Positions 2,173 to 31,481 of a stretch of DNA of 31,481 nucleotides are shown in pieces. Under the pieces are notes generated by a model. That model was not told where the DNA came from, ran no database searches, and saw only the letters and a list, made by a program, of their open reading frames with translations. The stretch is from positions 1 through 31,481 of the IMG/VR virus record IMGVR_UViG_3300045988_080512. One strand, given 5' to 3'. This DNA comes from a virus. The number at the start of each line of letters is the position of its first letter. Position 1 is the stretch's first letter. Position numbers and translations under genes: made by a program.

Positions 2173-2199
2173 AAAAGGAGGGTTATTTGCCCTCCTTTT
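2173..2199. terminator. bidirectional rho-independent terminator at the convergent junction
   Basis: Perfect 10-bp stem AAAAGGAGGG / CCCTCCTTTT with loop TTATTTG. A T-run follows on the plus strand (CTTTTTTATT) and an A-run precedes it, which is a T-run on the minus strand. It sits between the last plus-strand ORF (ends 2169) and the end of the minus-strand HNH gene, whose last codons it overlaps. Confidence 0.65.
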
Positions 2200-2521
2200 C
2201 TTTTTTATTAAACCTTTGATAATTACTTACTGCCGAATGTATAGCTTTATGACATACTGAACATAATGTTATCAAATCTTCCAAATGGTCTTGCTCCTCA
2301 TATAAATTGTCATACCTCTTATGATGTACCGATAATGACCTGTTTCCGCCTTCCTCAACGCATCAATTACAAGTTTGGCAGTGGTAGTTATCCCGCAACA
2401 AAACTTGCTCTCTAATCGCCTTAAATTCCTTTGAGCGGATATATCTCTGGTACTTTAAATATTCTTCACTTCTTACTTTCCTCTTAGTCTTATGAAGCAA
2501 TTTACTTGATTTGGAATCCAT
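2183..2521 (-). CDS. HNH endonuclease (112 aa), last gene of the minus-strand block
   Basis: ATG 2519-2521 lies 2 nt after the endolysin TAA; the gene ends at TAA 2183-2185. Motifs: CQTCN-TGA-C ... SVHHKRYDNLYEEQDHLEDLITLCSVCHKAIH (Cys box plus HH...CxxCH). One in-frame TGA at 2363-2365. Absent from the supplied track because TGA splits it. Confidence 0.7.
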
Positions 2522-2523
2522 AA

Positions 2524-2976
2524 TTATATAATAGTAAATTTCTGTCGTCTTTGCATTCCGTCTTTATTCTTTAATCCCAAGTGTATTCAACTTGCTATAC
2601 CATTCTTAGGCTTTTCATATATCAACTGGTCTCAATTTAATTCTTCAATAGCTTCAGCAATCCAACTTTGGAATACTTTCATATTACCATTAATTGGAGA
2701 TATATCTGCTGCATACCCTGTTAAATGAGCAGAAGTTGAAGATCCTCCCACTGCTTTATTAAGCTCCTTATTCCTAAAACCAGAGGAAATCCTGATGCCT
2801 GCATTGCCAAGCTGATTGTCATCACAATACTTTGCCCATCTCTCTCTTATTGGGTCTAAAAGCTTCTCGACCAACTCTATCAGGTGCTCTGTTATACTCT
2901 CATCTGGAGTGTTATTTATATGCTTAATTGAAGCAGTATCAGATCTTGTTAATTCTTCGAGTGTGAAATACTTCAT
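2524..2976 (-). CDS. endolysin, LAS/M15-family zinc peptidoglycan peptidase (150 aa)
   Basis: Track ORF 2632..2976 extended through TGAs at 2632 and 2587 to TAA 2524-2526. Zinc motif SAHLTGYAAD (Hx6D) lies in the listed part. The third ligand His is in ...NWDQLIYEKPKNGIASWIHLG..., downstream of both TGAs. Confidence 0.85.
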
Positions 2977-3134
2977 TATTTATATGAATTATGCAGTTTA
3001 TAAAGATAAATAAAATAGCACACTGCTCCAAATAACGTTAAACTAATAGTAATCCAAAAAGGAATTACTTTAATTAACAAAAATGCAATCATTAATAGTA
3101 CAACTACTATTACATATTTTAACCAATATTTCAT
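2976..3134 (-). CDS. holin-like small membrane protein (52 aa)
   Basis: MKYWLKYVIVVVLLMIAFLLIKVIPFWITISLTLFGAVCYFIYLYKLHNSYK has two hydrophobic segments. Its TAA overlaps the endolysin ATG by 1 nt (TAATG). Its ATG lies 1 nt after the upstream TAA. Too short for the track; function is inferred from position and topology only. Confidence 0.5.
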   Translation of the reverse strand: MKYWLKYVIVVVLLMIAFLLIKVIPFWITISLTLFGAVCYFIYLYKLHNSYK

Positions 3135-3135
3135 A

Positions 3136-3792
3136 TTATATCTTATTTAAAATTATACTTATCTGTATTCCAACTCTTCTTAGATGTACTCAAGTATCAT
3201 AAGGCATAGGTGTATCACAGAATGATAAACCTAAAATACCTATATCTTTATCCTCAGTTTTTAAATAAAATACTGCCACTTCATTTACTCTGTTAGACTT
3301 AAATGCGTAATATAATCTTGGGTCATCTGCTTCTAAACTATCTATATTACCATACCATCCATCATTCTTAGAAAACTCTATAATTGAGGTATAATCAGAT
3401 AATAAGAAATCTTTATAATGGCTACTTACAGGTCTTATTCCTGGCTTTACTTCCTCTGCATTCATTACTCCATAAGTAAATGGAAGTCCTCCTAATCCAG
3501 TAGTTCCATTATGATATTCAATAACTCAAGCTCTATCAGCATTCGTACTTTGAAGCAATTCTTTAAGCTTATATTTAATCTTTAAAGTTGCTTCATTTCT
3601 TGCAATAGTTTTAGTATTATGAGTCTGTTCAATATAGGTTACAACCTTATTATAAACAATAGATGGATTAAGTGTAATAACCATTACATAGGATATAAAT
3701 ATTAATCCAATCCCTGCTTTAAATATCTTTAGTAATCCATATTTATCAACCCATTCTAATACTTTACCAAACCAATTTAATTTATTTTCCAT
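3136..3792 (-). CDS. membrane-anchored hypothetical protein (218 aa)
   Basis: Track ORFs 3526..3810 and 3190..3465 are in the same frame and are joined through TGA 3526 (...NADRAWVIEYHNGTTGLGG...). TGA 3190 is also read through, to TAA 3136-3138. N-terminal TM segment: GIGLIFISYVMVITL. The preferred start, ATG 3790-3792, overlaps the upstream TAA (TAATG); the alternative is ATG 3810. Confidence 0.6.
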
Positions 3793-4217
3793 TACATACT
3801 GTCTTGACATAAACCCAGTGTGTTGTCAACTTGGAAATCAGCTCTAACAAACACTCCGCAGGTAATATCTTTGAACTTTTGATAGAATGGAGTATAAATT
3901 AAAGGATAAGCTATTTCAACTTCTGGATATAGGTTATTAAAACGATTAATTATATTTTGCAGTGCAAGCATACCTGCTGACTGTTCCTCCAATTGGTTGT
4001 TATCAGTCTCATCCCATCTTGATACGAAGTATAGGTTTAAAGAGTAAGTAATAGTATCTTCATCTACACTAAAAGTATTAGGTGTTATATAGAACACATT
4101 ATACTCAATAGTTGGTAAGCTATTTAACTCATAAATATCTTTACTTCCTACAAAATTGATGTTTGGCTCTTCTAATGCACAAGCTTTTAAATTGCTAATT
4201 ATCTCATAGTAGGTCAT
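3792..4217 (-). CDS. hypothetical virion (neck/head-tail joining region) protein
   Basis: 141-aa ORF ending in TAA, with no TGA. Tightly packed after 4220..4909. The call is positional only. Confidence 0.55.
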   Translation of the reverse strand: MTYYEIISNLKACALEEPNINFVGSKDIYELNSLPTIEYNVFYITPNTFSVDEDTITYSLNLYFVSRWDETDNNQLEEQSAGMLALQNIINRFNNLYPEVEIAYPLIYTPFYQKFKDITCGVFVRADFQVDNTLGLCQDSM

Positions 4218-4219
4218 AA

Positions 4220-4909
4220 TTACTTACTCTTTTTATTATTACTTGAAGGGAAATCATAAGCTCTTTGAAGAGGTCCCTCTCCAGGTTTAATGCTCCATCC
4301 CTTACCTCTTGCTCCACCAAGCCAAATATTGCAAGATGAGCTAGAATAAAGATTGGGAAACATATCCTTTAATGGCTTATATGTATAAAGCTCAGGGAAT
4401 TCATTATAATATGTAATTATAAAGTCCTGTAAACGAGTCTTAAAGAAATCCGCCTTATCTCTATAATACTTCTTAATTTGATTTACTTGACTTGCTTCAG
4501 CAGCAATATCTTTCTCATCATCAGTTCTCATAACTCCAAAATTACCAAGCTTATAAGATATAGGAATTACTATCTCGCTAAGTACTTGATAAAGTAAATA
4601 AGGCTGAACATAATAGTCTAATAGCTCTTTATATCTGTAGTTATCAGAATCATCAATAGAATCACTTGGAAGTGGCTCAGGAGGTTCTATTGGATGAACT
4701 GGAGTATGAGGATCAATCCAATTAATACATTTCTTTTGTAATGCTTCCAATAGCTTAGTACCAATAGTTGACTGAAGTTCTACATCTTGGGCACTTGTGA
4801 TGGCTGCTTGTAAATATTTACCCGATATATTGTTATCTAATGTAGAATTTGACTTTATATAGTCTTCTGAAATAAGCAGTACATTTCTATAGTTAAGTTG
4901 TTCCATCAT
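4220..4909 (-). CDS. hypothetical virion (head completion/connector region) protein
   Basis: 229-aa ORF ending in TAA, with no TGA. Its start overlaps the end of the GIY-YIG gene by 17 nt. The call is positional only. Confidence 0.55.
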   Translation of the reverse strand: MMEQLNYRNVLLISEDYIKSNSTLDNNISGKYLQAAITSAQDVELQSTIGTKLLEALQKKCINWIDPHTPVHPIEPPEPLPSDSIDDSDNYRYKELLDYYVQPYLLYQVLSEIVIPISYKLGNFGVMRTDDEKDIAAEASQVNQIKKYYRDKADFFKTRLQDFIITYYNEFPELYTYKPLKDMFPNLYSSSSCNIWLGGARGKGWSIKPGEGPLQRAYDFPSSNNKKSK

Positions 4910-5501
4910 AAATAAATTTATTGTTTTTATAAGGTCTATTTTCTTTTAAAGCTAAATATAATCCAGAACGTTCTCCATTAACTGATTTAACAGCTTCTTT
5001 CATTGAATTATATCTTGCAATAAAATTCCCATTCATATCAAATCTTAATATAGGCTTAACTCTAGTAATTCGTCCTTTGGAAGCATTTCCAATTTTAATA
5101 AGTGTTTCCAAAGTATAGATTCCTTTCTTTCCTTTATTCCAGGGTGTTTTACCTTTTTTAGAATTTGACATTTTTGCTCTACTCTCATTAGAAAAAGAAT
5201 ACCCGTATGTACCTTCTCCTCCTGATGTTATATTGTAACCATTTTCAGGAGTATTTGTTTTATATTTATGTATCAATATCCTTTCTAATGTCTTAGCACA
5301 AGCTTCTGGTAAATTATCTTTAATTATGATATGTTCAAATCCATCTCAGCTATATTTTTGTATCGCTTTATAAAAGTAAGCTTGAGTAGAGTATCCATAT
5401 CCATTTTTTCACCTAGCTTGCACACTTTGTCCAGTAATGCCAAAATATAGCTTATTGTTATACTTATTTATATGGCAATAAACAGTATAATTATTCAACA
5501 T
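4893..5501 (-). CDS. GIY-YIG homing endonuclease with NUMOD3-like and C-terminal DNA-binding region (202 aa)
   Basis: Track ORF 4893..5276 extended upstream through TGAs at 5346 and 5409 to ATG 5499-5501. N-terminus: MLNNYTVYCHINKYNNKLYFGITGQSVQAR-W-KNGYGYSTQAYFYKAIQKYS-W-DGFEH, giving the GIY...YxG...RW...KYxWxxF pattern. GKTPWNKGK is NUMOD3-like. Confidence 0.85.
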
Positions 5502-6582
5502 TTTGTTTGCTATCTTCTTGTCCATTTGGAGTTAAGCTAAAAGGAGTTATAGTTATTGAACCTTTCATTCCAAATATCTTATCAAATGTATCTACTATTT
5601 CGACCTGAATTGGTCTAACTACTGTACGATTATAAAGTTTAAAAGCTTCATTAAATTCTTGTTCGTTGAATCCACTTGAGTAGTTAAGGCCAAAAAGTAC
5701 ACTATTAGCTCTAAATGCGCAGAATATCTGTTCTCTTGTCCTATCAGATAAAGCACTATATTTCTCATCAAAATCATCAGAGTCTAAACGCTCAATAGTA
5801 GTCTTATTTGTTTCATCATCATTATATGAAATAAGAACTCTGCCAGCATTTTGAAATCCTGAGAATTTCTCATTAATATTCATCTCAATCTCTTCTTTAA
5901 CTTCATCTGTAGGCTGTCCATTATTAAAGTTAATGATAAGATTACCCATAAATCCATTATGAAGAGAATTTAGATGGAACTCATTAATATTCTTCTCAGT
6001 TTCGCAAGATAAGATAGCTGCACCATAAACAGGGACTGGATATACTTTTCTTGTTATATAGCCCTTATTATAAACAACGCTTGTAGGATTATTATCTGAA
6101 TAATTAAATTTTGGATATTTGATAGCTTTAATAGACCAAGCAGACCAATCATCAGCATAATAGAATACTTCATTTTTTTCATCAGAACGAATCTTCATAA
6201 AGTCAAGATGATATATTTCTGAAACTCTACCTACCATATCTCTAATTACTTGGATAGCATAACCTCCAAATATCATCTTATCTTTAGATACTTTACGCAT
6301 AATATCCATAATAGTTTCACCTTTCTTATTTACAGTTACTTCAAATCCTGGTGCATTACATATAACATCATTACCAACAATAAAGTCAGCAGTCCCATTA
6401 ATGATAGATTGAAGAGTAGCTACATTTAAGTATAAATCCCATAGATATAATGGATAGCGATTATCTTCACCCCAAGAAATCCAATCAGAACCCCTTTTTC
6501 TCGATTCTACAGGAAGTACTAAATTTGACACTACAACAGGATCAATTGCACTTAATTGTACTTTTGTTTTATTTTCGCTCAT
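5491..6582 (-). CDS. portal protein (HK97/Phage_portal-type, 363 aa)
   Basis: Translation has the portal-family layout (SDWISWGEDNRYPLYLWDLY..., ...YPVPVYGAAI..., ...FSGFQNAGRVLISY..., ...REQIFCAFRANSVLFG...). The preferred start, MSENK at 6580-6582, is 14 nt inside the upstream gene. The track start 6639 would overlap far more. No TGA. Confidence 0.75.
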   Translation of the reverse strand: MSENKTKVQLSAIDPVVVSNLVLPVESRKRGSDWISWGEDNRYPLYLWDLYLNVATLQSIINGTADFIVGNDVICNAPGFEVTVNKKGETIMDIMRKVSKDKMIFGGYAIQVIRDMVGRVSEIYHLDFMKIRSDEKNEVFYYADDWSAWSIKAIKYPKFNYSDNNPTSVVYNKGYITRKVYPVPVYGAAILSCETEKNINEFHLNSLHNGFMGNLIINFNNGQPTDEVKEEIEMNINEKFSGFQNAGRVLISYNDDETNKTTIERLDSDDFDEKYSALSDRTREQIFCAFRANSVLFGLNYSSGFNEQEFNEAFKLYNRTVVRPIQVEIVDTFDKIFGMKGSITITPFSLTPNGQEDSKQNVE

Positions 6583-7061: not shown

Positions 7062-7114
7062 AATGTCAAGTTTTTTACTCACTCAAAGTACTAAGAAAAA
7101 ATAAAAACTGACAA

Positions 7115-8086
7115 TTAGTTTGAACTTGCTAAAGTTCAGTTTTTAGATGTGGCTAATGATTTCTGTTCCTCAGTAAGTGCATTATAAACGTTAGTATAAA
7201 AAGTTAAAGTTTTGGTATCCTTTCCAGTTAAATCACTAACATTTGTAATAATATCAGTTACTGATTGACTATTTAGTGCTCTAAAATTTGCTAAATTCAT
7301 ACTTTTATCAGCTCCTTCAACACCCCCAAAATAAGTAACAGTAGTATTAGCAGATGCACATATTGAAATTTTATTTAGATCTTCTGTTAATGTGCAATTA
7401 TTTAATTTAATTTTTCCTACTGTTGTAACACCCTCATTATATGAACTAAAGTAATAATATAAAGATAGTTGTCCATTAATAACTTCAATTTCAGGAACAT
7501 TACTGCTAACAGAATAAAAGAAAAATTGTAAAGATGATACACCAGTATCAACTTCATTTATCACTTTTAAAGTAGTTGGTAAATTAGAAGCATTAAAGAA
7601 TGTTCTTGTTGCATAATTTCAACTAGAGGATGTGGTATTAATTAATTCTAAATTATTTAGTATGCCTTGAAATCCAGAAAATGCGTACGAATCCCCAACA
7701 CTAGTTCTTATATTATCAATATATATATTATATGTGTTTTGGAAGGCATATGATGCGTCATATACTTTAGACAGATCAATATGACTTGATATATCTATTG
7801 TAGATATGAAATTAGTCCCATCAAATCAATGATTTATATTATCTGGAAGAGAATATTCTATATTATTATATTGCTCTTGTGTCATACTAGAATATGCAAA
7901 TGTTAATCCATAATCATTTAAATTAATCTTTCCTCCACCACCTCCAGAAATCTGTCCTATCTTATCTGCATAGCTTCTAAAGGTATCGGAATCTGATACA
8001 GCAACACCTTTAGCTACAATAGCATCTTTAATGGCACTCTTAGTACCTTCAAGATACGTTAATTTATCAGAAATTGTATTTGCCAT
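7115..8086 (-). CDS. LRR/DUF285-like receptor-binding (tail fiber/spike) protein, paralog 3 (323 aa)
   Basis: Track ORFs 7826..8086 and 7136..7564 are in the same frame. They are joined through TGAs 7826 and 7619, and TGA 7136 is read through to TAA 7115-7117. N-terminus: MANTISDKLTYLEGTKSAIKDAIVAKGVAVSDSDTFRSYADKI. C-terminus ...KTLTFYTNVYNALTEEQKSLATSKN-W-TLASSN is homologous to ...KTLTLGATNLAKLSDEQKAIATNKNWILA of 13227..14180. Confidence 0.75.
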
Positions 8087-8087: not shown

Positions 8088-8609
8088 TTAGATATATTTA
8101 AATTTTACCCCTTTATAAGTGTCTGTTCTTCCTTTAAGACAATCTATAACTCTACTATGAGTATACCCATCTATTGATGTTTCAATTGCATTTTTATATG
8201 TTTTAACTAGTAAATCATTAATAAATAGCCCTACAGGTTTACTAATTTTATCAATACATCTATTTATTCTAGTTCCATATGTATTATTATACTTTGCATC
8301 ACATCATTCTAAATTTTCTACCCTATTATCTGTCTTATTTTCATTTATATGGTTAACATATGGTAGATTGTCAGGATTTGGAATAAATGCTTCTGCTACT
8401 AGTCTGTGAACTTTAATAGCTTTAGGTTTATCTAAGCCAGATACTAGAATTACATAATTATAGCCATATTTATCTATATGCTGTTTTAGCTTTTTATGTA
8501 TTTGTTTTCTGGTTCTTCCAATAGAATCTTTAAAAGTCAATGGGTTACTATATACATCTCCTGTAGAAGATACACTATAGTTAGGATAATTTGTTAATAC
8601 TCTATTCAT
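8088..8609 (-). CDS. HNH homing endonuclease (173 aa)
   Basis: Track ORF 8304..8636 extended through TGA 8304 to TAA 8088-8090. Motif: ...[31 protein letters not shown]... (classic NHIdgnktnNrveNLEW). The preferred start, MNRV at 8607-8609, lies just upstream of the preceding gene's TAG. Confidence 0.85.
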
Positions 8610-9234
8610 TTGGAATTTCACCATTAATTGTATCAAGAGTAGTTGAGATAGTTCCGATTTGTGCCTGTAAAGCTTGAATAGCAGCTTCTAATTCTGAAAC
8701 CTTAGCATTATATACTTCTAATGTTACATAATTAGATAGTTCCGATTTGTCTGCTTTATTTGCATCTAATGTCCCAACTTCCTTATCTAATGCATCAATC
8801 TTTAGTCCATCCTCTTCTTGCTTACTTTCAACAGATGCAAGCTCTTCTTTAGTAGCAAAATCCTCAGTACTTGGAATATCTGACTTGAGAGCATAGTTAG
8901 AAAGATCAATAGATAGATGTAAATCCTCACCCTCTCTATTAAATGACATAGGAGAGTTTACTTGAAATACTTCCATCTTAGATGTTTCTAATTCAGTAAT
9001 ATCATTCTTAATTGGCTCTAACTTAGGTTCAAGTATAACATCCAACTGAGAATTGATTTGCTCATCAATTATTTCAACAGCCTTATCTTCAGAAATGTAA
9101 TTACCTTTAGGTTGAAATCTTTCATCTGCTTCAATCTTAGTATAAGAACCAACAGGAAGCTGAGCTGTCTCAATACCACATTTCTTACTAACATAGAAGG
9201 TCTGAGTATTCTTAGTATTCTTTAATATAATCAT
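8602..9234 (-). CDS. coiled-coil tail fiber protein (210 aa)
   Basis: ORF ending in TAG. It shares segments with the large fiber (YALKSDIP..., [15 protein letters not shown] vs KQEEDGDKIDSLDKE). C-terminal heptad-like stretch: [33 protein letters not shown]. Confidence 0.65.
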
Positions 9235-9236: not shown

Positions 9237-9473
9237 TTATTTAACTTTTATTGATTCCTCATACTCTTCTAATGCTTTCTTAGCTGCTTCTTTATATTCA
9301 ATATCTTTATCAAGAGTTATTTCTCTTAGATGCTTTAAATCACAGCTTAAAGGACATATACATTCTTTAAAAGATGAATATTGTTTAATATCTAATTCGT
9401 CCTTATAGTTAGTAAGTAAATAACCTTCTTCTGGTTTTACTATTTGATATTTTTCTTTAATTTCAATTTTCAT
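9237..9473 (-). CDS. small conserved protein, paralog of 13006..13227 (possible fiber assembly factor)
   Basis: 78 aa. EEGYLLTNYKDELDIKQYSSFKECICPLSCDL aligns with DEGYFITSYKEGDDIKEYSASTILYCPLTFDI in the 73-aa ORF. Both lie between an LRR gene and a fiber gene. Function is inferred from position only. Confidence 0.55.
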   Translation of the reverse strand: MKIEIKEKYQIVKPEEGYLLTNYKDELDIKQYSSFKECICPLSCDLKHLREITLDKDIEYKEAAKKALEEYEESIKVK

Positions 9474-9475: not shown

Positions 9476-10390
9476 TTAACTATATGATAAAGTTCAACCT
9501 TTTGCTACTGTATTAGCTATTTGATCTTCTGTTAGTGAATCATAAACAGTCTTATTAAATACTATCGCAGGATTTTTACCTGGATCTGTATATAACCCAT
9601 CTATAATATTATTTACTGATTGTGAAGTTAACGATGGCAATCCTCCTAAATGTAAAGTATATGTTCTCATAGTTACTCCTTGCCCAATATTTGTAAATCC
9701 TCCAATATCTGTTAATAGTGTAAAATCTTTATCATTAGTATTACGCTCATCATCGGTTCCAAATAAATCAGTAAATGATGATCAATTACTTGCATCATAT
9801 TGTGGTACAGTTTTTAACCTATAACAGTATCTAAACATTTCATTTACCATAACTTTATTAGTTGTTGTAAATGTTATTTCTGGGGCAGATTCAAGATTAA
9901 TAGAATATCTAAATAAACCATAACAATCTACAGCATTAGATAGATTTAATGGTTCTATAGAAGTTGCTCTAATTCCTGATAAAGCTCCCATCATACGAGT
10001 TTTTCCAGTAAATATAGAAGGCAGTATATATGTTAATTGACTACATCCAGCAAATAAATAATATAGATCTGTATCCGTATTTTCAGATAAATACTTTTCA
10101 GCATCTATAGATGTTACTAAGCTATTTTGTAGAGTTGAGGTAGCTCTAAAAATAGATTTTTTTGGATTACTAGACTCTGGGATAATATACCAACTTGTAA
10201 CATTAGGATTATTACATTCATTAATAATAGTATTTTCACTACCAAAATATTGTCTAGATATTGACTTCCTAAATGCCTCATCTTCAAATTGAATTACTGG
10301 ACAAGGCCAGACTTTGGTACTGCCAACATAAATAGCAGTACCTTGTCTGTCACCTACATAAAATGTTTTTAAATCATCTCTAATATTCAT
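9476..10390 (-). CDS. LRR/DUF285-like receptor-binding protein, paralog 2 (304 aa)
   Basis: Track ORF 9782..10390 extended through TGAs 9782 and 9494 to TAA 9476-9478. Repeats of the type YLFAGCSQLTYI / GLFRYSINLESAPEI / EMFRYCYRLKTVP. C-terminus: ...VYDSLTEDQIANTVAKG-W-TLSYS. Confidence 0.75.
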
Positions 10391-17600: not shown

Positions 17601-17652
17601 TTTTATTAATATATAGCACTTTATAAATTTGTAATATTTTTAGAATATCTAA

Positions 17653-17702: not shown

Positions 17703-17712
17703 CTAAATATTT

Positions 17713-20481: not shown

Positions 20482-23400
20482 TAGATTGTAATATTTTTAA
20501 CAGTATCTTCTGTTAGTGTTAAATTCTCTGTATATTTAACTGTTCCTGTAGGTCCATCAGTCACTTCAAATTTAAACTGAACACCTTTTTGAGCATATAT
20601 TCTATAATTTCCATTATCCTGCATATAAGCCACATTCAAGAAGTTATCGTTTTCTGTAAGTATCTGATTTACTCCAGTTGGTATAGTGCCACTTGGAGTT
20701 TCTAATTTGCCTGTAATAAGAACAGCTTTATTTGGGTCTGGAGTTTGAGTAAACATACATTTAGGACCATCTACGCCTCCTTGTTTATAAAGACTAAAGT
20801 AGAAACTTCTTTGGTCATATTTAGTATTCTCATTATAAGTAACTGTTAATTCTGTTTCTCCAGGTTGCCCAGATTCAGGTGTAATGCTTACAATTTCATT
20901 TGGACTATATCCTCCTAATTCTCAAGGAATATTAGAAGTAACTGTAATCTTTTTAGTCCCAGCTTTATAATCTACAACTGGATCTGAATCATCAAATGAT
21001 ATATATTCACCTAGATTTTGAACTCCAGCTAAATAACTATTAATATCTTGAACTTTAATAAATTCACATCTAACTGTAGAATCTGAATTAATATCATAAG
21101 CATCAATCTTATTAAGTATCCAGTAAGAATCTTCAAAATAATAGAACTGTCTAAGTAAATCATACTTAACATCTAAATCATCTAATCTTACAAAGCAGGT
21201 AACTTTTTTAGTATTTACATCAAATTGATCATTATAAAATTCACTTCAGAATCTACTATAAATAGTACTTCCGATATTATAAGTTATATCATCAATATAA
21301 ATCTCTTGTGGTAATCCAAAATCTCAAGAAGCAGTAACATTAGAGGACGAAACGGTATACCTTGTAAATTGAGGTAATACAGTTCTCTTTATAGCAATTT
21401 TATTCCCCCTAATATCTTTCTCACTTTTAGTAGATATATAACACATTTCCTGATCATTTAATATGTTCATTTCTGTAAGATCATCTGTAATTCAATATGT
21501 TACTTCATTTCCTTTTACATCAGTTAAAGGAACATTACCGTTAAAGAATACTAGGGATTGAGAGATATCCTCTAAAGATTCCTCATTACCATCAATTGAG
21601 AAAAATACATTTTTGGCAAATATATCATTACCTGCGATTTTATATCATTCTGTGGTTTTAGAGGGATCTATAAAATTAGCTCCGTATAACTCTTGATCTA
21701 TAGTCTTAAGTTCAGTAGTGCTATTATTAAATAATGTATAGGTAATATTATCATTCATAAATGCAGGAACTACAAGGGAAGAAGAATTGCAAAAATTTCT
21801 AAAATATTTATTTCTCCATCTTGCAGAAACTATATTTTCATATATATTATCACTATACAGTTCAGTTGTTTCAGAATTAAAATTATAACCAGTATTTAAT
21901 CTTTGTTGACCATATAATATAGAATATTCCTTATTGTATTTTTTATAAAAATAAGTTTCTGGACCTTCAGAACTCATTCTATATCACTTCTTATCAAATA
22001 ATATTGGATTTACATTGAAATCTTTAGAATAATCTATTCTCTTACTCCAATCAGAGATTATATTCTTAAAGAAATTATTTCTAGTATATATTCTAATTGT
22101 TTTACTATCAATATCTTTTGTAAAATATAACCCAAATAGTTTTGCATAACTCAATAAGTAATCAGCAGGAGATTGTTCTGTTTTTAATAATAATTTTTTA
22201 GTTAATAATGCATTACTTTGAAGTACCTCTGTAGAAGTAGTAATTTCAATGGGAGAAGTAAGATCTACTATAAGATCTCCTTTTGGAATAGCTTGGTAAT
22301 CCTCTCCTCTTTCTATTACTTCACTTAATAATCCAGTAGGTCTAACACTATTTCCAGTAGATCATACAACATTAAGTTTAATTTTAATTTTATTAATTGG
22401 AATTTTAAAATTTGTAATATTAATAACAAAATCATTAGTTAATGAAGAAGTATCATAAAATACATTATTTTGAAAATACCCAAAATGATTAACCCCATTA
22501 GCTATAGGATTTGAGTAGGTTCCTGAATTTGTAAATCTATGTATTTCAGAAGTATAAATAGTATCATCTACTTCATTAGTAATTGTTAGCCAAACATCAG
22601 CGTATCCTCTATATGCTGAATAAAAAGGAGGAGCAGAGGAGCTAAAATACCTTCTAAATCCAAAAAAATATCTATCCCCAACATTTCCTGCAGTTCGATT
22701 AAACTTTAACTTAAAATAAAAAGTTGTAGAAAGGCTTTTTCTAAATCCAGCCTCACTTAAATCAATTATTCCAGAATCGTAAACAATATCAGGTGATGCA
22801 ATGGATAATTTTAAAGGACTTGATGTAGATTCTCCTTTATTTATACCTACCTGATAATTATATTTACTATCTTCTACTAAAAAGCCAGATTCTGTTACAT
22901 CTGCTTCGTCACTTACTAGATTAGATAATAAAGGTAAAGCTACAAAGGATTTACTTCAATACGGATTATTTCAATTAAAAAATGAAGGATCAAATACTAC
23001 ATCATATCCAGAATTCTCTTTTCTACAGATAGTTTCAATTAACTTACTCAATTTTAAAGCTGGCCTCTGCATATAACTTCTAAGATCTCTCATCTCCCAT
23101 TCTGTATATGCTCTATTTAATTTAGCTAATCCATACCCATTATAAGGTGTATATGTAACTCCTGAATCTGTCTTACTAGTAGGAAATATACTATTTTCAT
23201 TAGTATTTATTAAACAACTTTCATTATCAAAATCTTCATATAAACCATTATATGCTGGAATAAATGTCAAATAATCATATATTTGACTTCCTTCATTCGT
23301 TTTACTTCAGTCAAAACAAGTATTTACAAAATCTTTGTTAATATAAAAATTAAGTTCAGTATCAGCAGGAAGTGTATTTCCATCTTCATCAGTTACAAAG

Positions 23401-23837
23401 TATTGTAAATCAGCAAGAGTCCTAATAGTACCATCTTCTTTATATTTAAGACCATAAAAGAAATCTCCTAATCCTCCATATAAAGTAATATTATAAGTAA
23501 TAATAGCTTGTTTTATAGATATACTATTTAATTGCATATATCCAGATTCAACTAAATAGCCATTATTATAAATTCCAAAATCAACTCGTTTTGAAGGATC
23601 AAAATATACTCCAGAGAAATTACCTTCTTTTATATGGAGAAATCTATCTAATTTATAAATATCTCCAAAAATCTTATTATTATTTTTGGTACCAGGTATA
23701 GAAATCGTCTTACTAAACGAGTTCTTGACTATAGTGGGGTTTTGGAAATCCTCAACTGTATAAGTTATAGGAAGACTAATTCCCTCACTACAGTCAACCT
23801 CTTTATTTGCAATAAATAATTTAATATTCTTTCTCAT
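20481..23837 (-). CDS. very large tail/baseplate-like structural protein (1118 aa)
   Basis: Track ORFs 23307..23873, 22971..23270, 21645..21977 and 20481..20756 all share one frame. I translated every gap and found no TAA/TAG. There are ten in-frame TGAs: 23307, 22971, 22956, 22362, 21984, 21645, 21492, 21324, 21246, 20922. The start, MRKNIKLF at 23835-23837, is 1 nt after the upstream TAA. Its TAA overlaps the next ATG (TAATG). Confidence 0.7.
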
Positions 23838-23838
23838 T

Positions 23839-26019
23839 TTATTTTCTATATTTATCTTGAGAAGCTTCCACATTAATTGTATAATAGAACTTGTTTTTAC
23901 CTTGATTAGTATAAGTTTTATATTCGCAATTTGTATCAGTAATCAATACTGGAGTGATAGTATTATCTTTAAGATTATGCAAATATACTTTAGTACTCTC
24001 AATTAGATTAAACATCTTAGAAGCTTGAATATCATTTAAATAACCAGTATAAAGAACCCAGCTTGAAGTTATAGTATTCAAATACTTATTTCTTGCAAAC
24101 TCTTGTGATGTATTTAATACCTTACGAGTATATGTTTCAGATTTAATCTCATCATTCTTTTTAACATTACCCTCAACAAGTAATGAATCCCATCCTCCTG
24201 CTGAATTAGTATAATATAACACATAATCTTTACCTGTGGTATCTATATCATATCTAATCTGTCTATCACTAATATTTCCGTCTTCTACAAATCCTACTAT
24301 TAAATAGCTCCCACAAGGCCATAGTTTATTGCTTAAATCTTCTGTATATGTATATCCATTAATTCCAGAATTTAAACTAATATCCATAGCAGTTTGTGCT
24401 CCATCTACATAAAAAAATCTATTAACAACTCCCGTTCCAGTTGGTAAAATTCAACTTGCTACTAAATATTGTCTTGGATCAACTAAACCAGTAATAGGAT
24501 CACTTAACATAGTACCTTTAGTCAAATCTCTATCTTTATAACTCCAGTCATTGAAGAAAGTAATTGGTTTTTCATTTCCACTAGATGTCATCAAAGTAAA
24601 TGGTTTCAAATATTCTGGAGATATTATAGTTTTAGAAGTATTAAATATAATACCGTTAGATAGATAATTTTCAGCAACATTATTTAATAAAAACTCTACT
24701 CTATCAGTTTCTGGATATTTATAAGCCTTGCCAGCATATACCATATCCCCTGCATAATCTAAATGATATTCAATAAAATCTGAACTGGTTATCTCATTCC
24801 AAACATAATCTTTCCAAATTGGAGAAATATCAGACTTAACTGATTGGGTAATATTAATAGATAAATTAATAATACTTGAACTATTCTTTATAACAGATAC
24901 TCCAATGGTTGCTTTTCTTGAAGACAATCCTGAATTTTCCGCAATGTTCAAACTAATAGTTGCTACGCCTTGAGAATTTACAGATAACTTCTGTCCACTA
25001 ATCCAACCTACAGGAATGCTAAATACAACATCATCTAAGTTGTTTGAGCCTGTACCAGTTATATTTAATGTAGATGCAGTTCAACTTACTTCATAATTAG
25101 TATTAGGAATCATTAAAGATGTTGCAGCTTGTTTAATTGGAACTGTAGCTTCAAGATTATAACCTCCAGAAGTTGTTGCAGTAACCATTGCACTAAACTC
25201 CAAATTATTAGTAGTTTTATTCTCTGGAACAGTTAATACAAAGTAGTTATCAATAATATCCTTTTTAATATTACTAGCTTGAGGACAGGTAACATTAAAT
25301 GAAGTAATAGTTTCTTCTGTTTTAGTTGTACTTAAATGAAATTCTTCAGTAACAAAAGCAGCTGCTCCATAAGTTCCAGAAGAAGGAGTTACTACTAACT
25401 TTAAATCTTCAGGAGTATTACTCTTTTCAATCTTAAAGCCATAACTATAACTAATAAGTTTATTAGTATCATAATAAGCCCCTAATTGGATAGTTGCAGT
25501 TAAATCAGTATTTCATTGAGTATTAGCTCTTACTGTAACTTTAAACTTAATAGAGCAAGAATCTCAATCCAGAACTTCCATATTAACTAAAGCTGTAGCA
25601 TTAACAACTGCTGCATCTCATTTAATAATATCTGATCTATTTAATATATACTCTACTGTATATTCTCCACCAGTATTTGGTACTTTAATGGTTCCATTAG
25701 CAGGATAATATCCAGGAGCTTTACTATGTAAATTAATTGGTAAATCTTCCCCTAATAAAGCAGTAGTAATACCTCTAGGATAAAAATGAAATACAGTAGA
25801 AGAATCAGTAGTTATTGTTGTGGGAGATAAAAATTGTATTGTACATCCAGAAGTACTAGGCTCTTGTATAGTTACCTCTAAAGGCCCTTCTTCAGTATAA
25901 TCATCTCCCCAAGTCCAATAATCATATTCTCCAGTAATTCCCCATCCAGGATTATTCCATTTAACAGGAAAACTCCTTGATGCGTTATATATTCCTAATT
26001 TACTTGGTATAAATGTCAT
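23839..26019 (-). CDS. large tail-associated structural protein (726 aa)
   Basis: Track ORFs 25618..26019, 24451..24951 and 23839..24387 share one frame. The gaps contain no TAA/TAG. There are five in-frame TGAs: 25618, 25564, 25513, 25081, 24451. Function is inferred from size and position. Confidence 0.6.
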
Positions 26020-26021
26020 TT

Positions 26022-26575: not shown

Positions 26576-26580
26576 TTATA

Positions 26581-26630
26581 TGTAACTTTTTTATATTATC
26601 TTAGTACCAAATATGAGTAAAAAGGTTACA
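26581..26630 (+). repeat. 50-nt conserved hairpin element, copy A
   Basis: Plus-strand reading: TGTAACTTTTTTAT-ATTATCTTAGTACC-AAATATGAGTAAAAAGGTTACA. The outer 12 nt pair (TGTAACTTTTTT with AAAAAGGTTACA, one G-T wobble). It has the same flanks as copy B but on the opposite strand. Confidence 0.6.
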
Positions 26631-26774
26631 GTTAATGTTTTCTTTTTCATTCTTCAATCTGTCTATTTTCTTCATTAGCTTTATCTATAACATAGCATAT
26701 AAGATTCAGGAACTCTTTAATCTGCATATCATATATCTGATGTCAATTAAATCTGGTAACTTCACTTACCTTAT

Positions 26775-27416
26775 CTATTCAGATAATTCAGCTTCATTTT
26801 TGAGTAAAAGGATTAATCGTCTCGTCTGTATTAAGCTCTTCAGAAGTTTCCTCCTTTCCAGTTTGTCCCTTGTTTTCCTTAGTCTCTTCTTCATCTCCCT
26901 TTCCGAAGAGTGTAGGGTACTCAGCGTTGATACTTGCAATAAGTTTACAAAAAAAAACATTATGTCTGAAAATATATCTATTGTTAGATGAGTATTTAAG
27001 AATTCTGCCTCATCAATAGGGTCATAATCTTCTCCATACTTCTTTCCATTAGGTAGCAAGAAACAAGCTGCTAGATTAGGCATAAAATCATCATACTGCT
27101 TATAAAAATTCTGAAAGTCAATATATTGACTGGCCGTCATCTTATTAACATTAAAAAAGACTTTATATTCCTTATTGCCAATATTATAAGTAGTTTCTGG
27201 GGTTTTTGGCTTATATGGAGTCTCTATAAATTTAAGATTATTTATAAATTCCTGCAGCTTGTTTACTTCCATATTAGTTATATCTTCTATAGGTATATCA
27301 CTAAGTACGGATACCATAGCTAAATTCATATCTAATTCATTTTCCCAGTCTTTTCGTATTATCTCAAACAGTCTTTTATAATGAGATAAATCCATTTCAT
27401 TCCAATTCTTTATCAT
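26775..27416 (-). CDS. hypothetical protein (213 aa) downstream of terL
   Basis: ORF ending in TAG. Its ATG overlaps the terL TAA (TAATG at 27414-27418). No TGA. No family recognised. Confidence 0.55.
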   Translation of the reverse strand: MIKNWNEMDLSHYKRLFEIIRKDWENELDMNLAMVSVLSDIPIEDITNMEVNKLQEFINNLKFIETPYKPKTPETTYNIGNKEYKVFFNVNKMTASQYIDFQNFYKQYDDFMPNLAACFLLPNGKKYGEDYDPIDEAEFLNTHLTIDIFSDIMFFFVNLLQVSTLSTLHSSEREMKKRLRKTRDKLERRKLLKSLIQTRRLILLLKNEAELSE

Positions 27417-28699
27417 TATTTAATTGCAATATTATAAGTTCCTTTATTTGTATTTAAAGCATCATAAGCTAACATTAAAGATATACAAGTATCATCATTA
27501 AATCCAGATGGAGCATTATAACTAACATTTCCAGTCTTTGGATTATAACTGGCTTCATATAGTCTTAATTCATTTAATAGTTTATCATCCTTTAAAATAC
27601 CAATCTTTTCGTTTTCTAATGCCGCTTGTAGCTTATTTACAATAGCTGCCTTAGACTTATTAGTAGTTAAAAACTTAACTATCCGTAATTTAGGATTCCT
27701 TTTTACAAGAATATCATAAAACACTGAACCTATTGAGTTTTGTTCGACTTGAACTATCTTTATAAATCCCTGATACTCAGTAAATATATTTGTCAGTAAA
27801 TCAACTTGTTCTGTTGGAGTTTTGTCGTTAAAATACTTTATAAAGACCATCTGCCCATTTTCATTTAAAGCTGTAATACAAGTATAGTCTTTACCAGAAC
27901 CAGTAGCCCAGTCAACTCCAATATAGAGATTATGATATTCAGGTTTTTTATCAATTATACAGTTAGCTATATTATTAAATAGGCAACCATCATCATCTGC
28001 AAACTCTCCAAGATATTCAGTTCTAAATTTATTTTTGGAGGTTGTAAGGCGATACATTTCAAGTTTATCCTCACTTAACAGCATAGAAGTATCTTCTAAT
28101 GCTCAATCAAAGGATTGATAATATTTACTAAAATTACCATCAAAGCCTTTTTTAAAGCATTCATAAAAGAATCCTTCTCTAAACCTTGGAGTACTAATTA
28201 TAAGTATTGGAGCATTCCATACATCAGCGATAGGTGTTAAAATTTCGTATACTTCATCTGATATATAAGCTGCTTCGTCAATTACTAATATTCCACTAAC
28301 TGTAAATCCTCGTAATGAATCTTTTTGCTCAGCAGATTTAAATAGTATTTCACTCCCATTAGTAAATTCAATCTCAAGCAAAGATTCATTCTTTTTCTTA
28401 ATAATATCTGTGCCATCTAATGCCTTTACTAACTCTTTAAATATCTTTCTGGAGTTAGTAAGAGTTGGTTCAACAATACAGCTAATACTTCCAGGATAGT
28501 TAATTGAAAATCGTAATAGTTCATTTTCTGCCATAAAGGATTTACCACATTGTCTCTTTGCTTTTACAGTAAATATTTTTCCAGACCTATAAGAGTGCTC
28601 TAAAGCAGTATGTACCTTTAATTGATAGATAAATGGGCTATATCCTTTATATATTTTTGTCATTGTTAATTGGATCTCCAAATTTAAACTGGACTTCAT
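27416..28699 (-). CDS. terL: terminase large subunit
   Basis: Track ORFs 28103..28699 and 27416..28084 share a frame and are joined through TGA 28103 (...YYQSFD-W-ALEDTSMLLSEDK...). Walker A: KAKRQCGKS. Walker B: GILVIDEAAY. Nuclease acidic motifs: LYIGVDWATG and GFNDDTCISLMLA. An alternative start, MTKIY at 28661-28663, would give a shorter overlap with terS. Confidence 0.85.
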
Positions 28700-29340: not shown

Positions 29341-29362
29341 TTTTATTTAAAATATATTATTT

Positions 29363-29689
29363 TTAATCCAAGTATTTATAAACTATATCTATTAGTTTGG
29401 TAATCATATCTTTAATTAGAATCATACAATCCTTTATAACTGGAGTCATAAATGCGATTAAAGCAATATATGCAATCATTAAGAAGCTTAATTGTCCAGT
29501 TACTAAGATATATAGTAAACTTGCCCACCAAGTACAGCATAGAGAACATCCAAATAAAGGTATAGACCAATCAGTGTATTTAACTCCAGGATATAGTTTA
29601 CTTCATACCCATCTATTTGCCTTGTCCATAGCTCCAGATAAATCAATACAGAAGACAAGAATAATAGCTATAAAAAGTATGCTTAACAT
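29363..29689 (-). CDS. hypothetical multi-pass membrane protein (108 aa)
   Basis: ATG 29687-29689 to TAA 29363-29365 with one TGA at 29603. Translation: MLSILFIAIILVFCIDLSGAMDKANRWV-W-SKLYPGVKYTDWSIPLFGCSLCCTWWASLLYILVTGQLSFLMIAYIALIAFMTPVIKD... Hidden in the standard code. It competes with, and I prefer it to, plus-strand track ORF 29397..29711. Confidence 0.5.
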
Positions 29690-29928
29690 AACCTCTCTCT
29701 TATTTGTTTAATAAATCTCTGAATAGTCGTATGACTAATTCCCAGAATCTTCCCAACTTCTCTATAACTTCGATATTCAGCATATAAGATAATTATGGTC
29801 TTATCTGCTCTATTTAATGCTTCTCATTTCGGATAAATTGAAAGTAATCTATCATCCATCTCTGTAAAGGTATCTATTTCAAAGTTATACTCAATTAATA
29901 AATCATCAATATTAATCTTCTGCTTCAT
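29683..29928 (-). CDS. HTH protein resembling sigma-70 region 4 (81 aa)
   Basis: ATG 29926-29928 to TAA 29683-29685 with TGA at 29824. RADKTIIILYAEYRSYREVGKILGISHTTIQRFIKQIRERL has the region-4/LuxR-type HTH pattern. Hidden in the standard code. Confidence 0.5.
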
Positions 29929-30220
29929 TTAACCAATCCTCTAAATTATCCGTTTGTTGTTCTAATGGCTCTTTAAATATTTCATAGTACTTTTTATATT
30001 GGTAATAGTATCTACTATTCTTAGAAAACCAATTATTCTTAAATACTCTTGTAATCCAATACTTCAGCTCATTCTTACTATCTAATGACTGAAGCTTGGA
30101 ATTAGATGTTTCCAGAAGTGCAATCAAACACATCTGGAAACAATCGTCATCCATCCCAAATTTAACCTTTAGTTCTAAGCAGAATTCATAATATTTGGTA
30201 AGTATTTCATTATTCGTCAT
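29912..30220 (-). CDS. protein resembling sigma-70/ECF region 2 (102 aa)
   Basis: DDDCFQMCLIALLET...NELKYWITRVFKNNWFSKNSRYY resembles the region 2 pattern (D..Qe....l......f..Wl..ia.N...d..R). Weak, eye-level similarity only. Confidence 0.4.
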   Translation of the reverse strand: MTNNEILTKYYEFCLELKVKFGMDDDCFQMCLIALLETSNSKLQSLDSKNELKYWITRVFKNNWFSKNSRYYYQYKKYYEIFKEPLEQQTDNLEDWLNEAED

Positions 30221-30638
30221 TTCTTATATAATTACTAAAGTCTATTTCTAATTTAATTGCTTTCTTTAAAGATAACTCTGTTTTTAAAGAGTATTTATAT
30301 TCTCCTCCAAAATCAGTTGTACTTCTTCCATATTTCATTGAATCTTTAATAAAAGCTCTTTTTACATCTTTATAAATATAAACTCCATCATCAAATATAA
30401 TGACTAATATAGAGTTACATTTACTAAGTATATCAAACTTATCCCTGTTTATAATTGTAGTTGGATATTTATCTGATTTAAATCTTCTCCTTTTAACTTC
30501 AATTATATAGTCTATATTATTCCAAGTAAATGTTCCATCATATCTGGAATAATCGTCTTTACATCATTCTATTTCTATATTATATTTATCTTTAAATAGA
30601 TTCTTTATAAAGACTAAACTTCTTATATCTGTTTTCAT
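30210..30638 (-). CDS. PD-(D/E)XK-like nuclease (142 aa)
   Basis: ATG 30636-30638 overlaps the upstream TAA (TAATG); the gene ends at TAA 30210-30212, with TGA at 30564. RYDGTFTWNNIDYIIEVKRR fits D-x13-E-x-K. Hidden in the standard code. Confidence 0.45.
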
Positions 30639-30877
30639 TATCTTACATTATGAATTTTTAAGGTTACATCACAATACTGTTCATATAATTCAGATACTTC
30701 TGAACTTCCAGGATTATACCACATTACAGAGTCTAATTTATGCTGAAGTTCTGCCTGTTCTAATCTAAGCTCAAATGTTTTAGTTTGGTAGTCTCCATAA
30801 GCATTATATACTCTAATACCAGCTATAATAAAGCTAAGTACTAATAATCCAGCTAATATTTTATTTATCTTTTTCAT
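30638..30877 (-). CDS. small signal-anchor membrane protein (79 aa)
   Basis: The track ORF starts at a TTG (30919). The first ATG, 30875-30877, gives MKKINKILAGLLVLSFIIAGIRVYNAY..., a basic N-terminus followed by a TM helix. Confidence 0.5.
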   Translation of the reverse strand: MKKINKILAGLLVLSFIIAGIRVYNAYGDYQTKTFELRLEQAELQHKLDSVMWYNPGSSEVSELYEQYCDVTLKIHNVR

Positions 30878-30888
30878 AATTAAATATA

Positions 30889-31068
30889 TTAGAAAGAAAT
30901 ACCTAAACCAAAAAACCAAGAGGATTTCTTTACCTTTTCATTGGTTTCAATCTCCTTTAATGCCTCATTACATAATTCTTGAGCTTTCTCAATAGAACCA
31001 TCTTCAGTAATCTTACCATCTAATATATCAAGAAAATATTCAAGTGCTTCAATTTGTTTAGTTTTCAT
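30889..31068 (-). CDS. hypothetical small protein (59 aa), first gene of the minus-strand block
   Basis: ATG 31066-31068 to TAA 30889-30891. Translation: MKTKQIEALEYFLDILDGKITEDGSIEKAQELCNEALKEIETNEKVKKSSWFFGLGISF. One codon below the track cutoff. Confidence 0.4.
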   Translation of the reverse strand: MKTKQIEALEYFLDILDGKITEDGSIEKAQELCNEALKEIETNEKVKKSSWFFGLGISF

Positions 31069-31104
31069 AATTTATAAAGTTTAATTGTTAATATTATGTC
31101 TTAC

Positions 31105-31122
31105 TTTCATAGTGCAAATATA
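31105..31122 (-). promoter_or_regulatory. candidate Bacteroidota-type promoter for the minus-strand block (left arm of an 18-bp inverted repeat)
   Basis: The minus strand reads TATATTTGCACTATGAAA. TATATTTG matches the -7 consensus TAnnTTTG. A TTTG lies 20 nt upstream (plus coordinates 31143-31146). The ATG at 31068 is 46 nt downstream. Confidence 0.45.
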
Positions 31123-31189
31123 CAACATTATTTTTAAATCTCCAAATATTTTTGCATTTATTTTTCTTGCATAATTAAAAATTTATTCA

Positions 31190-31207
31190 TATATTTGCAC
31201 TATGAAA
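31190..31207 (+). promoter_or_regulatory. candidate Bacteroidota-type promoter for the plus-strand genes (right arm of the inverted repeat)
   Basis: The plus strand reads TATATTTGCACTATGAAA, identical to the minus-strand reading of 31105-31122. The -33-like element is CTTG, 20 nt upstream. The ATG at 31218 is 20 nt downstream. Confidence 0.45.
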
Positions 31208-31217
31208 ATAATAAACT

Positions 31218-31481
31218 ATGAAAGGGTATATTTATAAAATAACTAATACAATAAATAATAAGTGTTATATTGGTCAAACTAGAACTAATATTAACAAAAG
31301 ATGGAATAAACATAAGTTTGTAAGTACAGATCCAAGTAATAAAGCTTATAATTATCCATTATATAACGCTTTTAGAAAATACGGAATAGATAAGTTTAAA
31401 TGAGAAATATTAGAGGAATTAGATGATAATTTAGAAGATTTAATTATAAAGCTAAATAATCTTGAAATATATTATATATCT
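31218..31481 (+). CDS. GIY-YIG homing endonuclease (partial, runs off the window)
   Basis: MKGYIYKITNTINNKCYIGQTRTNINKRWNKH...YNAFRKYGIDKFK-W-EILEELDDN... The track ORF stops at TGA 31401, but the frame stays open to the window end. The TGA sits at the position before the EILE block. Confidence 0.8.

Follow-up and report, generated by a model that had tools for sequence, protein, structure and literature searches.

A family of compact gut phages that reads TGA as tryptophan and carries no decoder of its own

Introduction

That gut phages can recode stop codons is established. Gut phages with recoded TGA or TAG were described by Ivanova et al. and by Borges et al. (10.1101/2021.08.26.457843 / Nat Microbiol 2022 for the latter), and the latter study detected UCA suppressors in only 35% of the genomes that use code 4, in which TGA stands for tryptophan (10.1101/2021.08.26.457843). 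The majority of recoded phages lack a detectable suppressor tRNA, which raises the question of how their codon is read. The same authors delineated small clades, Garnet and Amethyst (34 +/- 5-6 kb) and Topaz (~22 kb), with predicted standard-code hosts among the Bacteroidetes and Firmicutes, and put forward the idea that recoding gates lysis genes (10.1101/2021.08.26.457843). Zeta crAss-like phages that are opal-recoded and in which no TCA tRNA was detected have been described as well. Here we analyse positions 1 to 31,481 of the IMG/VR virus record IMGVR_UViG_3300045988_080512 (the window, i.e. the whole stretch of 31,481 nucleotides, at a guanine-plus-cytosine (GC) content of 30.4%), which carries a tailed gut phage that uses TGA as a tryptophan codon. 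An earlier annotation made from the letters alone, the sequence-only reading, had proposed that TGA is sense throughout this DNA and that the phage uses a code that is foreign to its host.

Results

TGA is a sense codon in half of the genes

With TAA and TAG as the only stops, the minus strand resolves into 36 genes that abut or slightly overlap and run continuously from 2183 to 31071. Among them are open reading frames (ORFs) of 1130, 922, 870 and 726 residues; the standard code cuts them at single TGAs. The plus strand holds a convergent block (12-1730, 1678-1890, 1893-2027 and 2029-2168) and, at the far end, a GIY-YIG gene that runs off the end of the window. Altogether, 43 in-frame TGA codons stand beside 75 TGG codons, and 21 of the 41 genes (51%) carry TGA. 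Two of the TGAs, starting at 1792 and 31401, lie on the plus strand. The remaining 41 are on the minus strand; each is given here as the plus-strand coordinate p of the first base, so that the codon spans p-2 to p: 2365, 2589, 2634, 3192, 3528, 5348, 5411, 7138, 7621, 7828, 8306, 9496, 9784, 12524, 13790, 16031, 17144, 17934, 19014, 19488, 20924, 21248, 21326, 21494, 21647, 21986, 22364, 22958, 22973, 23309, 24453, 25083, 25515, 25566, 25620, 26315, 26459, 28105, 29605, 29826 and 30566. TGA never serves as a terminator; 35 genes end in TAA and four in TAG (1728, 8602, 10392 and 26775).

These counts agree with the claims of the sequence-only reading that at least 42 TGAs are in frame and that no gene needs TGA as a stop, including its four TAG ends. 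The range of 2183-31481 that it gave for recoding holds but is too narrow, as the plus-strand gene 1678-1890 contains a TGA as well. Likewise, fragments merge as it had described, but the TGA-carrying genes number 21 instead of 20. Its motifs and coordinates match, with the qualification that the GIY-YIG gene containing the TGA at 31401 is a truncated plus-strand gene.

Coding density is 97.1% in our own code-4 gene set. A crude greedy ORF caller reached 86.5% (33 ORFs with a median of 203 residues) when TGA was sense, and 70.8% (43 ORFs with a median of 142 residues) under code 11. The comparison of the two codes that had been suggested as a check, 86.5-97% against 70.8%, thus came out in favour of code 4.

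About 45 assemblies of relatives, taken from IMG/VR, ENA and Logan, were furthermore compared to the window. The frames are continuous across the TGAs inside conserved phage genes, and the same co-linear frames and TGA sites recur across dozens of independent assemblies from different samples. That the TGAs are real stops, explained by pseudogenes, assembly errors, occasional read-through or selenocysteine, has nothing in its favour but the standard-code reading itself. There is next to no chance of this: besides their recurrence, the frames run on without a stop for up to 1130 codons at a GC content of 30%, essential residues such as His132 of the endolysin lie downstream of TGAs, and the 43 sites share no sequence context (no significant 3' bias, p = 0.11).

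Apparent in-frame TAGs in relatives turned out to be artefacts. Those at 29611 arose from a gapped alignment. Those at 23870 concern the minus-strand gene 20481-23873, which codes for a large tail protein of about 1118-1130 residues, contains ten TGAs, several of them at sites that are TGA/TGG polymorphic among relatives, and has full-length homologues of 1118-1146 residues. These TAGs are not internal stops but point to the true gene start, which is probably the ATG at 23837 and not 23873, because the second codon of the longer form is TAG in 24 relatives.

TGA specifies tryptophan

At the TGA sites of the window, 720 comparisons yielded TGA 487 times, TGG 158 times, TAT 35 times, TTT 8 times (12 times for TTT and TTC together) and GGA 4 times. 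At the TGG sites of the window, relatives contain TGA 162 times. This free exchange of TGA and TGG, with tyrosine and phenylalanine codons next in frequency, argues that TGA is tryptophan and neither glycine nor a stop. Glycine would be expected if the phage used code 25 in a host from the Absconditabacteria or Gracilibacteria. Phages of this kind are known, they and their hosts have a low GC content, and the hosts have walls, but this explanation is very improbable, given that the few GGA codons all fall on one site in a mobile endonuclease gene, compared to the many TGG, TAT and TTT/TTC codons, and that TGA aligns with conserved tryptophan residues.

Several such residues can be named. In the HNH_3/NUMOD4 homing endonuclease (8088-8624, minus strand; Pfam), the single TGA aligns with the tryptophan of the NLRW motif of I-HmuI (PDB 1U3E). 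The Peptidase_M15_3 endolysin (2524-2976, minus strand; Pfam PF08291, E = 2.5e-13), which matches the motif of the zinc D-Ala-D-Ala carboxypeptidase 1LBU, has two TGAs (2634 and 2589). Its residue W130, encoded by TGA, is invariant in variants down to 30% identity and precedes the metal-binding His132 by two residues. Since His132 lies downstream of both TGAs, they have to be read through for an active endolysin to be made. The XkdF-type prohead protease (17007-17600, minus strand; Pfam Peptidase_S78_2, E = 6e-9) has one TGA, and relatives contain 11 TGA and 5 TGG at this site. Position Trp199 of the terminase large subunit (TerL) was also considered as a test site and found to be uninformative, as it is not conserved in distant standard-code terminases.

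Paralogues within the window give the same picture. The PWNKG motif is written with TGG in the GIY-YIG/NUMOD3 homing endonuclease 4893-5525 (minus strand; Pfam; two TGA and one TGG) and with TGA in its paralogue 15744-16382 (minus strand; one TGA). The latter is classified as a NUMOD-type homing endonuclease by this paralogy and by sub-threshold Pfam matches only (I-HmuI_NUMOD-like, E = 0.0012, 18.8 bits compared to a cut-off of 27; NUMOD3, E = 0.0073), and it is missing from most relatives. In the C-terminal KGW(T/I)L motif of three leucine-rich repeat (LRR) paralogues, one copy has TGA and another has TGG. The earlier observations that TGA occupies tryptophan positions and that the homologous PWNK motif has TGG in another homing endonuclease are hence borne out by the exchange in relatives, the I-HmuI alignment, the invariant W130 and the paralogue comparison. 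Taken as a whole, the sequence comparisons show that TGA is a sense codon for tryptophan in about half of the genes, including those for the terminase, tail proteins, fibres, the endolysin, a regulator and five homing endonucleases.

The genome is nearly complete and lacks decoding machinery

In several relatives, position 1 of the window is contiguous with position ~31212, and one rebuilt relative contig of 31,398 nt is colinear with the entire window and spans its ends. The window is therefore judged to be the nearly complete genome, of about 31-32 kb, of an apparently lytic phage. Absent is about 0.4 kb, namely the remainder of the mobile GIY-YIG gene (31218-31481, plus strand, identified from its translation, one TGA at 31401) plus its 3' flank; relative L007 adds about 390 bases of this gene and flank. 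The gene is missing in the relatives with the contiguous junction. An integrase was not found in the phage.

ARAGORN detected no tRNA in the window, nor did any tRNA-like Rfam model match even at E <= 5. No hairpin resembling an anticodon arm with UCA is present in the six intergenic gaps of at least 30 nt (38-264 nt). ARAGORN likewise found no tRNA in 35 related loci or in the rebuilt 31,398-nt relative, and the precomputed Pfam annotation of ten relatives lists no release factor and no tRNA synthetase. As the genome is compact and essentially complete, the absence of a decoder is a firm result: throughout the family, the phage included, genes for a tRNA, a release factor or a tRNA synthetase are lacking. 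The sequence-only reading had reported neither a suppressor tRNA(UCA) nor a means of interference with release factor 2 in the window; the absence of a suppressor tRNA and a release factor now extends to the family.

The phage might still encode an unconventional decoder, either an aberrant tRNA or a small protein that reprograms tRNA-Trp(CCA) or blocks release factor 2 (RF2). Noncanonical suppressor tRNAs that escape detection are suspected in recoded phages by Borges et al. (10.1101/2021.08.26.457843), and UGA can be read by a tRNA-Trp(CCA) whose anticodon stem has 4 bp (cited in 10.64898/2025.12.01.691617). Small TGA-free ORFs without assigned function are at hand at 30889-31068, 30638-30877, 1893-2027 and 2029-2168. 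In contrast, 97% of the window is coding and the gaps contain neither the hairpin nor a tRNA-model match; a repeat found between genes forms a long, simple hairpin; the one large protein that always lacks TGA is modelled as an ordinary superfamily 2 (SF2) helicase; and a TGA in the third gene of an operon leaves little room for a timed switch. We regard a decoder of this kind as decidedly unlikely.

TGA is used unevenly

TGA accounts for 36% of the tryptophan codons, whereas in all other pairs of A- and G-ending codons 64-97% end in A. TGA must therefore be either selected against or recent. Family-wide, TGA occupies only one of 18 tryptophan sites in the genes for the helicase, the capsid, g14264 (a putative abundant tail protein), the holin and the portal, compared to 70 of 90 in the other genes (Fisher 8e-9, for groups that were chosen after seeing the data). 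The helicase-like early gene (12-1730, plus strand, 572 residues) has four tryptophan codons, all TGG, and no TGA was found in 76 comparisons with 20 relatives. Its product has no match in Pfam, PHROG or NCBIfam. The AlphaFold model (predicted local distance difference test score of 81.5) matches SF2 helicases such as UAP56, Mfd, RecQ and HSV-1 UL9, so that the protein models as an ordinary SF2 helicase fold. The major capsid protein gene (14827-15729, minus strand; weak Pfam Phage_capsid match and a homologue named 'Major capsid protein [Caudoviricetes sp.]') is free of TGA in 40 comparisons, and so is the holin-like ORF (2976-3134, minus strand), which codes for a hydrophobic membrane protein of 52 residues, in 47. 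The portal gene (5491-6582, minus strand; Pfam Phage_portal) has no TGA in the window and 4 TGA compared to 76 TGG in relatives.

The only genes that consistently lack TGA are those of the SF2 helicase and of the most abundant structural proteins, together with some tiny ORFs. Other TGAs are strictly conserved. The third gene of the leftward operon (30210-30638, minus strand) has a TGA at codon 25 that is kept in 27/27 relatives, which means that TGA has to be decoded soon after this operon begins. In the plus-strand operon, the TGA at 1792-1794 of the small ORF 1678-1890 is kept in 20/20 relatives. The pattern is not a tidy split between standard-code early genes and recoded late genes.

Evidence on the host

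The M15_3 peptidase gene directly adjoins the holin-like ORF, according to Pfam and hydrophobicity, respectively. A core resembling a Shine-Dalgarno (SD) sequence precedes only 2 of 40 gene starts, compared to a background of 10.6%; the leaders are rich in A/T and poor in G. Initiation without SD sequences is typical of Bacteroidota. Among 57 endolysin homologues in GTDB genomes, about three quarters are from Bacteroidota, and mostly from Bacteroidales. The best one, at 51% identity, belongs to an Alistipes metagenome-assembled genome (MAG); the groups represented include Alistipes, Muribaculaceae, Prevotellaceae, Bacteroidaceae, Rikenellaceae and Tannerellaceae, and the isolates Bacteroides neonati and Hoylesella marshii are included. 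At all seven homologue loci that were checked, TGA serves as a terminator. A chromosome of Hymenobacter, also of the Bacteroidota, codes for a protein of the helicase family with 45% identity.

A further indication comes from tail fibres. Two independent contigs of sister lineages, whose TerL is 75% identical in one and 97% in the other, share a fibre segment with phages of ~168 kb, examples of which are IMGVR_UViG_3300029720_000001, 3300045988_163797 and 3300045988_159576. The shared segment comprises 1.7 kb at 89-95% identity in contig 105798 and about 2.8 kb at up to 97% identity in contig 175865 (coordinates L074 1-1682 and L085 16163-18926, compared with L077-L090). The ~168-kb phages are themselves TGA-recoded, the only matches of their terminase are to crAss-like phages of Bacteroides, Flavobacterium, Azobacteroides and Cellulophaga, and no tRNAs were found within the structural regions of these phages that were examined. 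That a receptor-binding module was exchanged so recently implies that the two kinds of phage have a host in common. The fibre of the window itself (10392-13004, minus strand, 870 residues, one TGA) is only distantly similar to the shared segments: residues 585-723 are 38% identical to a crAss-like fibre, and the C-terminus weakly matches the crAss-like phages cr272_1 and cr273_1. The 148-kb contig was also considered as a prophage in a host genome. This was rejected, as a crAss-like genome is joined to a small-phage genome at the shared fibre segment; by its sequence, IMGVR_UViG_3300045988_175865 (148,631 bp) appears to be a chimera of the two.

We infer that the host is probably a walled Bacteroidales bacterium that uses the standard code. 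The earlier proposal of a walled host that does not use code 4 thereby gains support, which is indirect and consists of the M15_3 peptidase with the holin-like ORF, the Bacteroidales homologues, the SD-less starts and the fibre exchange.

Alternatively, the host might natively use code 4, as an unrecognised walled gut lineage or a code-4 member of the Eggerthellaceae, and the phage would share the code of its host and need no machinery. Such a host would account for a whole family without tRNA or release factor, for conserved TGAs in early genes of both operons and for the complete lack of TGA terminators; walled code-4 gut bacteria with 31-40% GC are found in the literature (10.64898/2025.12.01.691617). 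However, a native code is difficult to reconcile with a TGA share of only 36% at 30% GC, when other A-ending codons reach 64-97%, and with the strong avoidance of TGA in specific genes. The homologues of the endolysin, the gene starts without SD sequences, the fibre exchange with crAss-like phages and the Hymenobacter helicase moreover point to Bacteroidota, where no code-4 genome is known: reports of this code are limited to Bacillota, Pseudomonadota, Verrucomicrobiota and, of late, Actinomycetota (10.64898/2025.12.01.691617). The Mycoplasmatales have no peptidoglycan on which an M15 endolysin could act. On balance, a native code-4 host is unlikely.

INPHARED contains no DNA match among deposited phage genomes, and terminase matches of less than 30% identity only, the best of TerL being phages of Thermus, Meiothermus and Halorubrum at 24-28%; the capsid and the 1130-residue tail protein have no match there. 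In the absence of a near match, no host can be derived from this collection. The Bacteroidetes -7 motif TAnnTTTG is not enriched genome-wide (41 copies found compared to 45.6 expected) and was not used as evidence. Nor were its copies on both strands of the divergent intergenic region (31101-31211). This region is spanned by a 45-nt inverted repeat, which places TATATTTG, a fit to the Bacteroidetes -7 consensus TAnnTTTG, upstream of both outward-facing genes.

Further genes, repeats and relatives

The terminase large subunit is encoded at 27416-28699 (minus strand, one TGA; Pfam Terminase_6N and Terminase_6C). In relative L034, which is 50% identical, the terminase gene contains four in-frame TGAs. 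Apart from the ten-TGA gene, the tail region includes a tape-measure-like protein of 922 residues (17713-20481, minus strand, three TGAs), a long ORF that is open only if TGA is sense, and a tail protein of 726 residues (23839-26019, minus strand, five TGAs). Two overlapping minus-strand ORFs at 29683-30220 resemble a split sigma factor. The region-2-like part (29912-30220) has a weak match to the NCBIfam sigma70-ECF model; the region-4 helix-turn-helix part (29683-29928), which carries a TGA, has clear matches to Pfam Sigma70_r4 and helix-turn-helix families.

The LRR-type genes code for putative tail or receptor-binding proteins. The copy at 7115-8086 (minus strand, three TGAs, C-terminus KNwTLASSN) is assigned by paralogy with 9476-10390 (C-terminus KGwTLSYS) and 13227-14180 (KNWILA, with TGG). 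All three share a C-terminal ...EQK...K(G/N)W(T/I)L motif, and a BspA-type LRR match was obtained for one paralogue only and below threshold (13227-14180, Pfam LRR_5, E = 5e-4, 20.4 bits compared to a cut-off of 27.7). Two paralogous ORFs of 73-78 residues, 9237-9473 and 13006-13227, are each located directly upstream of an LRR-type paralogue and, judged by sequence and position, may code for fibre-assembly chaperones.

Together with the HNH endonuclease at 2183-2521 (minus strand, one TGA; Pfam HNH, E = 9e-6), five homing endonucleases (HNH, HNH_3, two GIY-YIG and one NUMOD-type) are present in one 31-kb genome. Their presence and insertion sites vary among otherwise colinear relatives. As all five carry an in-frame TGA, they can be functional only where UGA is sense.

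An intergenic repeat of about 59 nt with TGTAAC...GTTACA flanks occurs in both orientations, at 17644-17702 (plus), 26581-26639 (minus) and 7072-7107 (plus), as well as in relatives (L007 1-90 and L062 16990-17080). It sits in gaps where endonuclease genes come and go. The copy at 17630-17712 forms, on the gene-sense strand, a long hairpin of -28 kcal/mol (z = -8.8); the repeat was considered as an odd tRNA and rejected, because this simple fold is not tRNA-like. Another, GC-rich hairpin with T/A tracts at 2165-2232, not assigned to a strand, separates the convergent gene blocks and is likely a bidirectional terminator; its sole Rfam match, to the terminator-like stem of sraA, is below threshold.

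The phage family is widespread. More than 3,000 capsid homologues were found, and the contigs cluster at 29-33 kb.

Discussion

A proposed decoder already present in the infected cell

The explanation that we favour, with a probability of roughly 0.6, is that a code-4 phage infects a Bacteroidales host with a standard code and that UGA is read as tryptophan by a decoder already in the infected cell. Given a walled host of this kind and a phage without a decoder, UGA would have to be read by a tryptophan-accepting tRNA that is not encoded by the phage and that competes with the RF2 of the host. The decoder would pre-exist as a suppressor encoded by the host or by a resident element, or as an altered tRNA-Trp. 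A resident decoder is preferred over a switch timed by the phage, because a conserved TGA lies in the third leftward gene and because the TGA-free set is confined to the helicase, tiny ORFs and abundant structural proteins. The under-use of TGA and its avoidance in the capsid, portal, putative tail protein and holin genes could then be the cost of imperfect decoding. Recoding may in addition prevent the expression of the endolysin and tail genes in cells unable to suppress UGA.

A number of points weigh against this explanation. With ten TGAs in one gene, decoding has to be highly efficient at each codon, so that a dedicated tRNA(UCA) or a native code-4 cell fits better than leaky reading, and the TGAs have no special sequence context. 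Conserved TGAs in the first operon and a lack of switch machinery would also be expected of a phage with a native code-4 host. A TerL alignment scan of GTDB genomes found no relatives, and no direct link to a host, be it a CRISPR spacer, a prophage or a GTDB relative, is in hand. The endolysin homologues and the lack of SD sequences are hints at the phylum level only, and a few endolysin matches are in MAGs labelled Firmicutes.

A more specific version of a resident decoder is conceivable but unlikely as it stands. The phage would have outsourced its genetic code: having no decoder of its own and needing UGA as tryptophan early, it would rely on suppression in trans from a resident of the Bacteroidales host. 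The suppressor tRNA of the TGA-recoded crAss-like phages from whose kind its sister lineages differ so much in size, yet with which they recently traded tail-fibre genes, would be the top candidate, and an unrecognised decoding of UGA in a gut Bacteroidales lineage the alternative. If a crAss-like suppressor were indeed used, the phage would be a parasite of the code of another phage. In our literature search, co-infection was not brought up in connection with decoding.

The family offers a clean test case for how UGA is read without a detectable suppressor: it is essentially complete, 97% coding, widespread and tRNA-free, requires TGA from the first operon on, and avoids TGA in abundant proteins. 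It furthermore gives a concrete lead to a host and to co-infecting TGA-recoded crAss-like phages. For annotation, this means that gene callers have to try code 4 on small phages outside the crAss-like group too, as code 11 truncates or fragments about half of the genes.

Comparison with known recoded phages

Compared by description only, the window phage resembles Garnet and Amethyst in genome size and all three small clades in its gut habitat and in having recoded genes for structure and lysis. Unlike these clades, which mix codes 4, 11 and 15, it has no integrase, and its TGAs reach the third gene of the leftward operon and are not restricted to a late block. A TAG-recoded prophage, L152 (ENA ERZ28598220, scaffold_71, 77706-99445), was found with an integrase and host genes in the standard code beside it. 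In this prophage, 13 TAGs lie in frame in the terminase ORF and 3 in the portal, and the integrase and a helicase homologue have no in-frame stops. The gene layout resembles that of the Garnet prophage of Borges et al. The helicase is 46% identical to the product of 12-1730 and is the only gene common to L152 and the window.

Code-25 phages of Absconditabacteria and Gracilibacteria are similarly dense in in-frame TGA, have no suppressor of their own and share the code of their host; however, their TGA stands for glycine and is found in about 90% of the genes, compared to tryptophan and 51% here. Phages of Mycoplasma and Spiroplasma likewise read TGA as tryptophan without phage-encoded machinery, but their hosts are wall-less, whereas in the window phage the gene for an M15 endolysin adjoins a holin-like ORF.

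The opal-recoded crAss-like phages (Crassvirales, zeta/epsilon-like, 155-190 kb) have in common with the window phage the reading of TGA as tryptophan, the gut habitat and a similar GC content (about 33%); they are associated with Bacteroidota hosts, the probable hosts of the window phage, and some of them have no detectable TCA suppressor. They differ in that terminase, portal and capsid are unrelated, the window genome is only a fifth of the size and lacks a tRNA array, and TGA makes up about 70% of the tryptophan codons in a crAss-like fibre gene compared to 36% in the window. TGA recoding in gut phages without a detectable suppressor tRNA has thus already been described, and the family is a further, uncharacterised example. 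Distinctive are the combination of an essentially complete, compact genome without a decoder, the need for TGA very early, and the link to TGA-recoded crAss-like phages.

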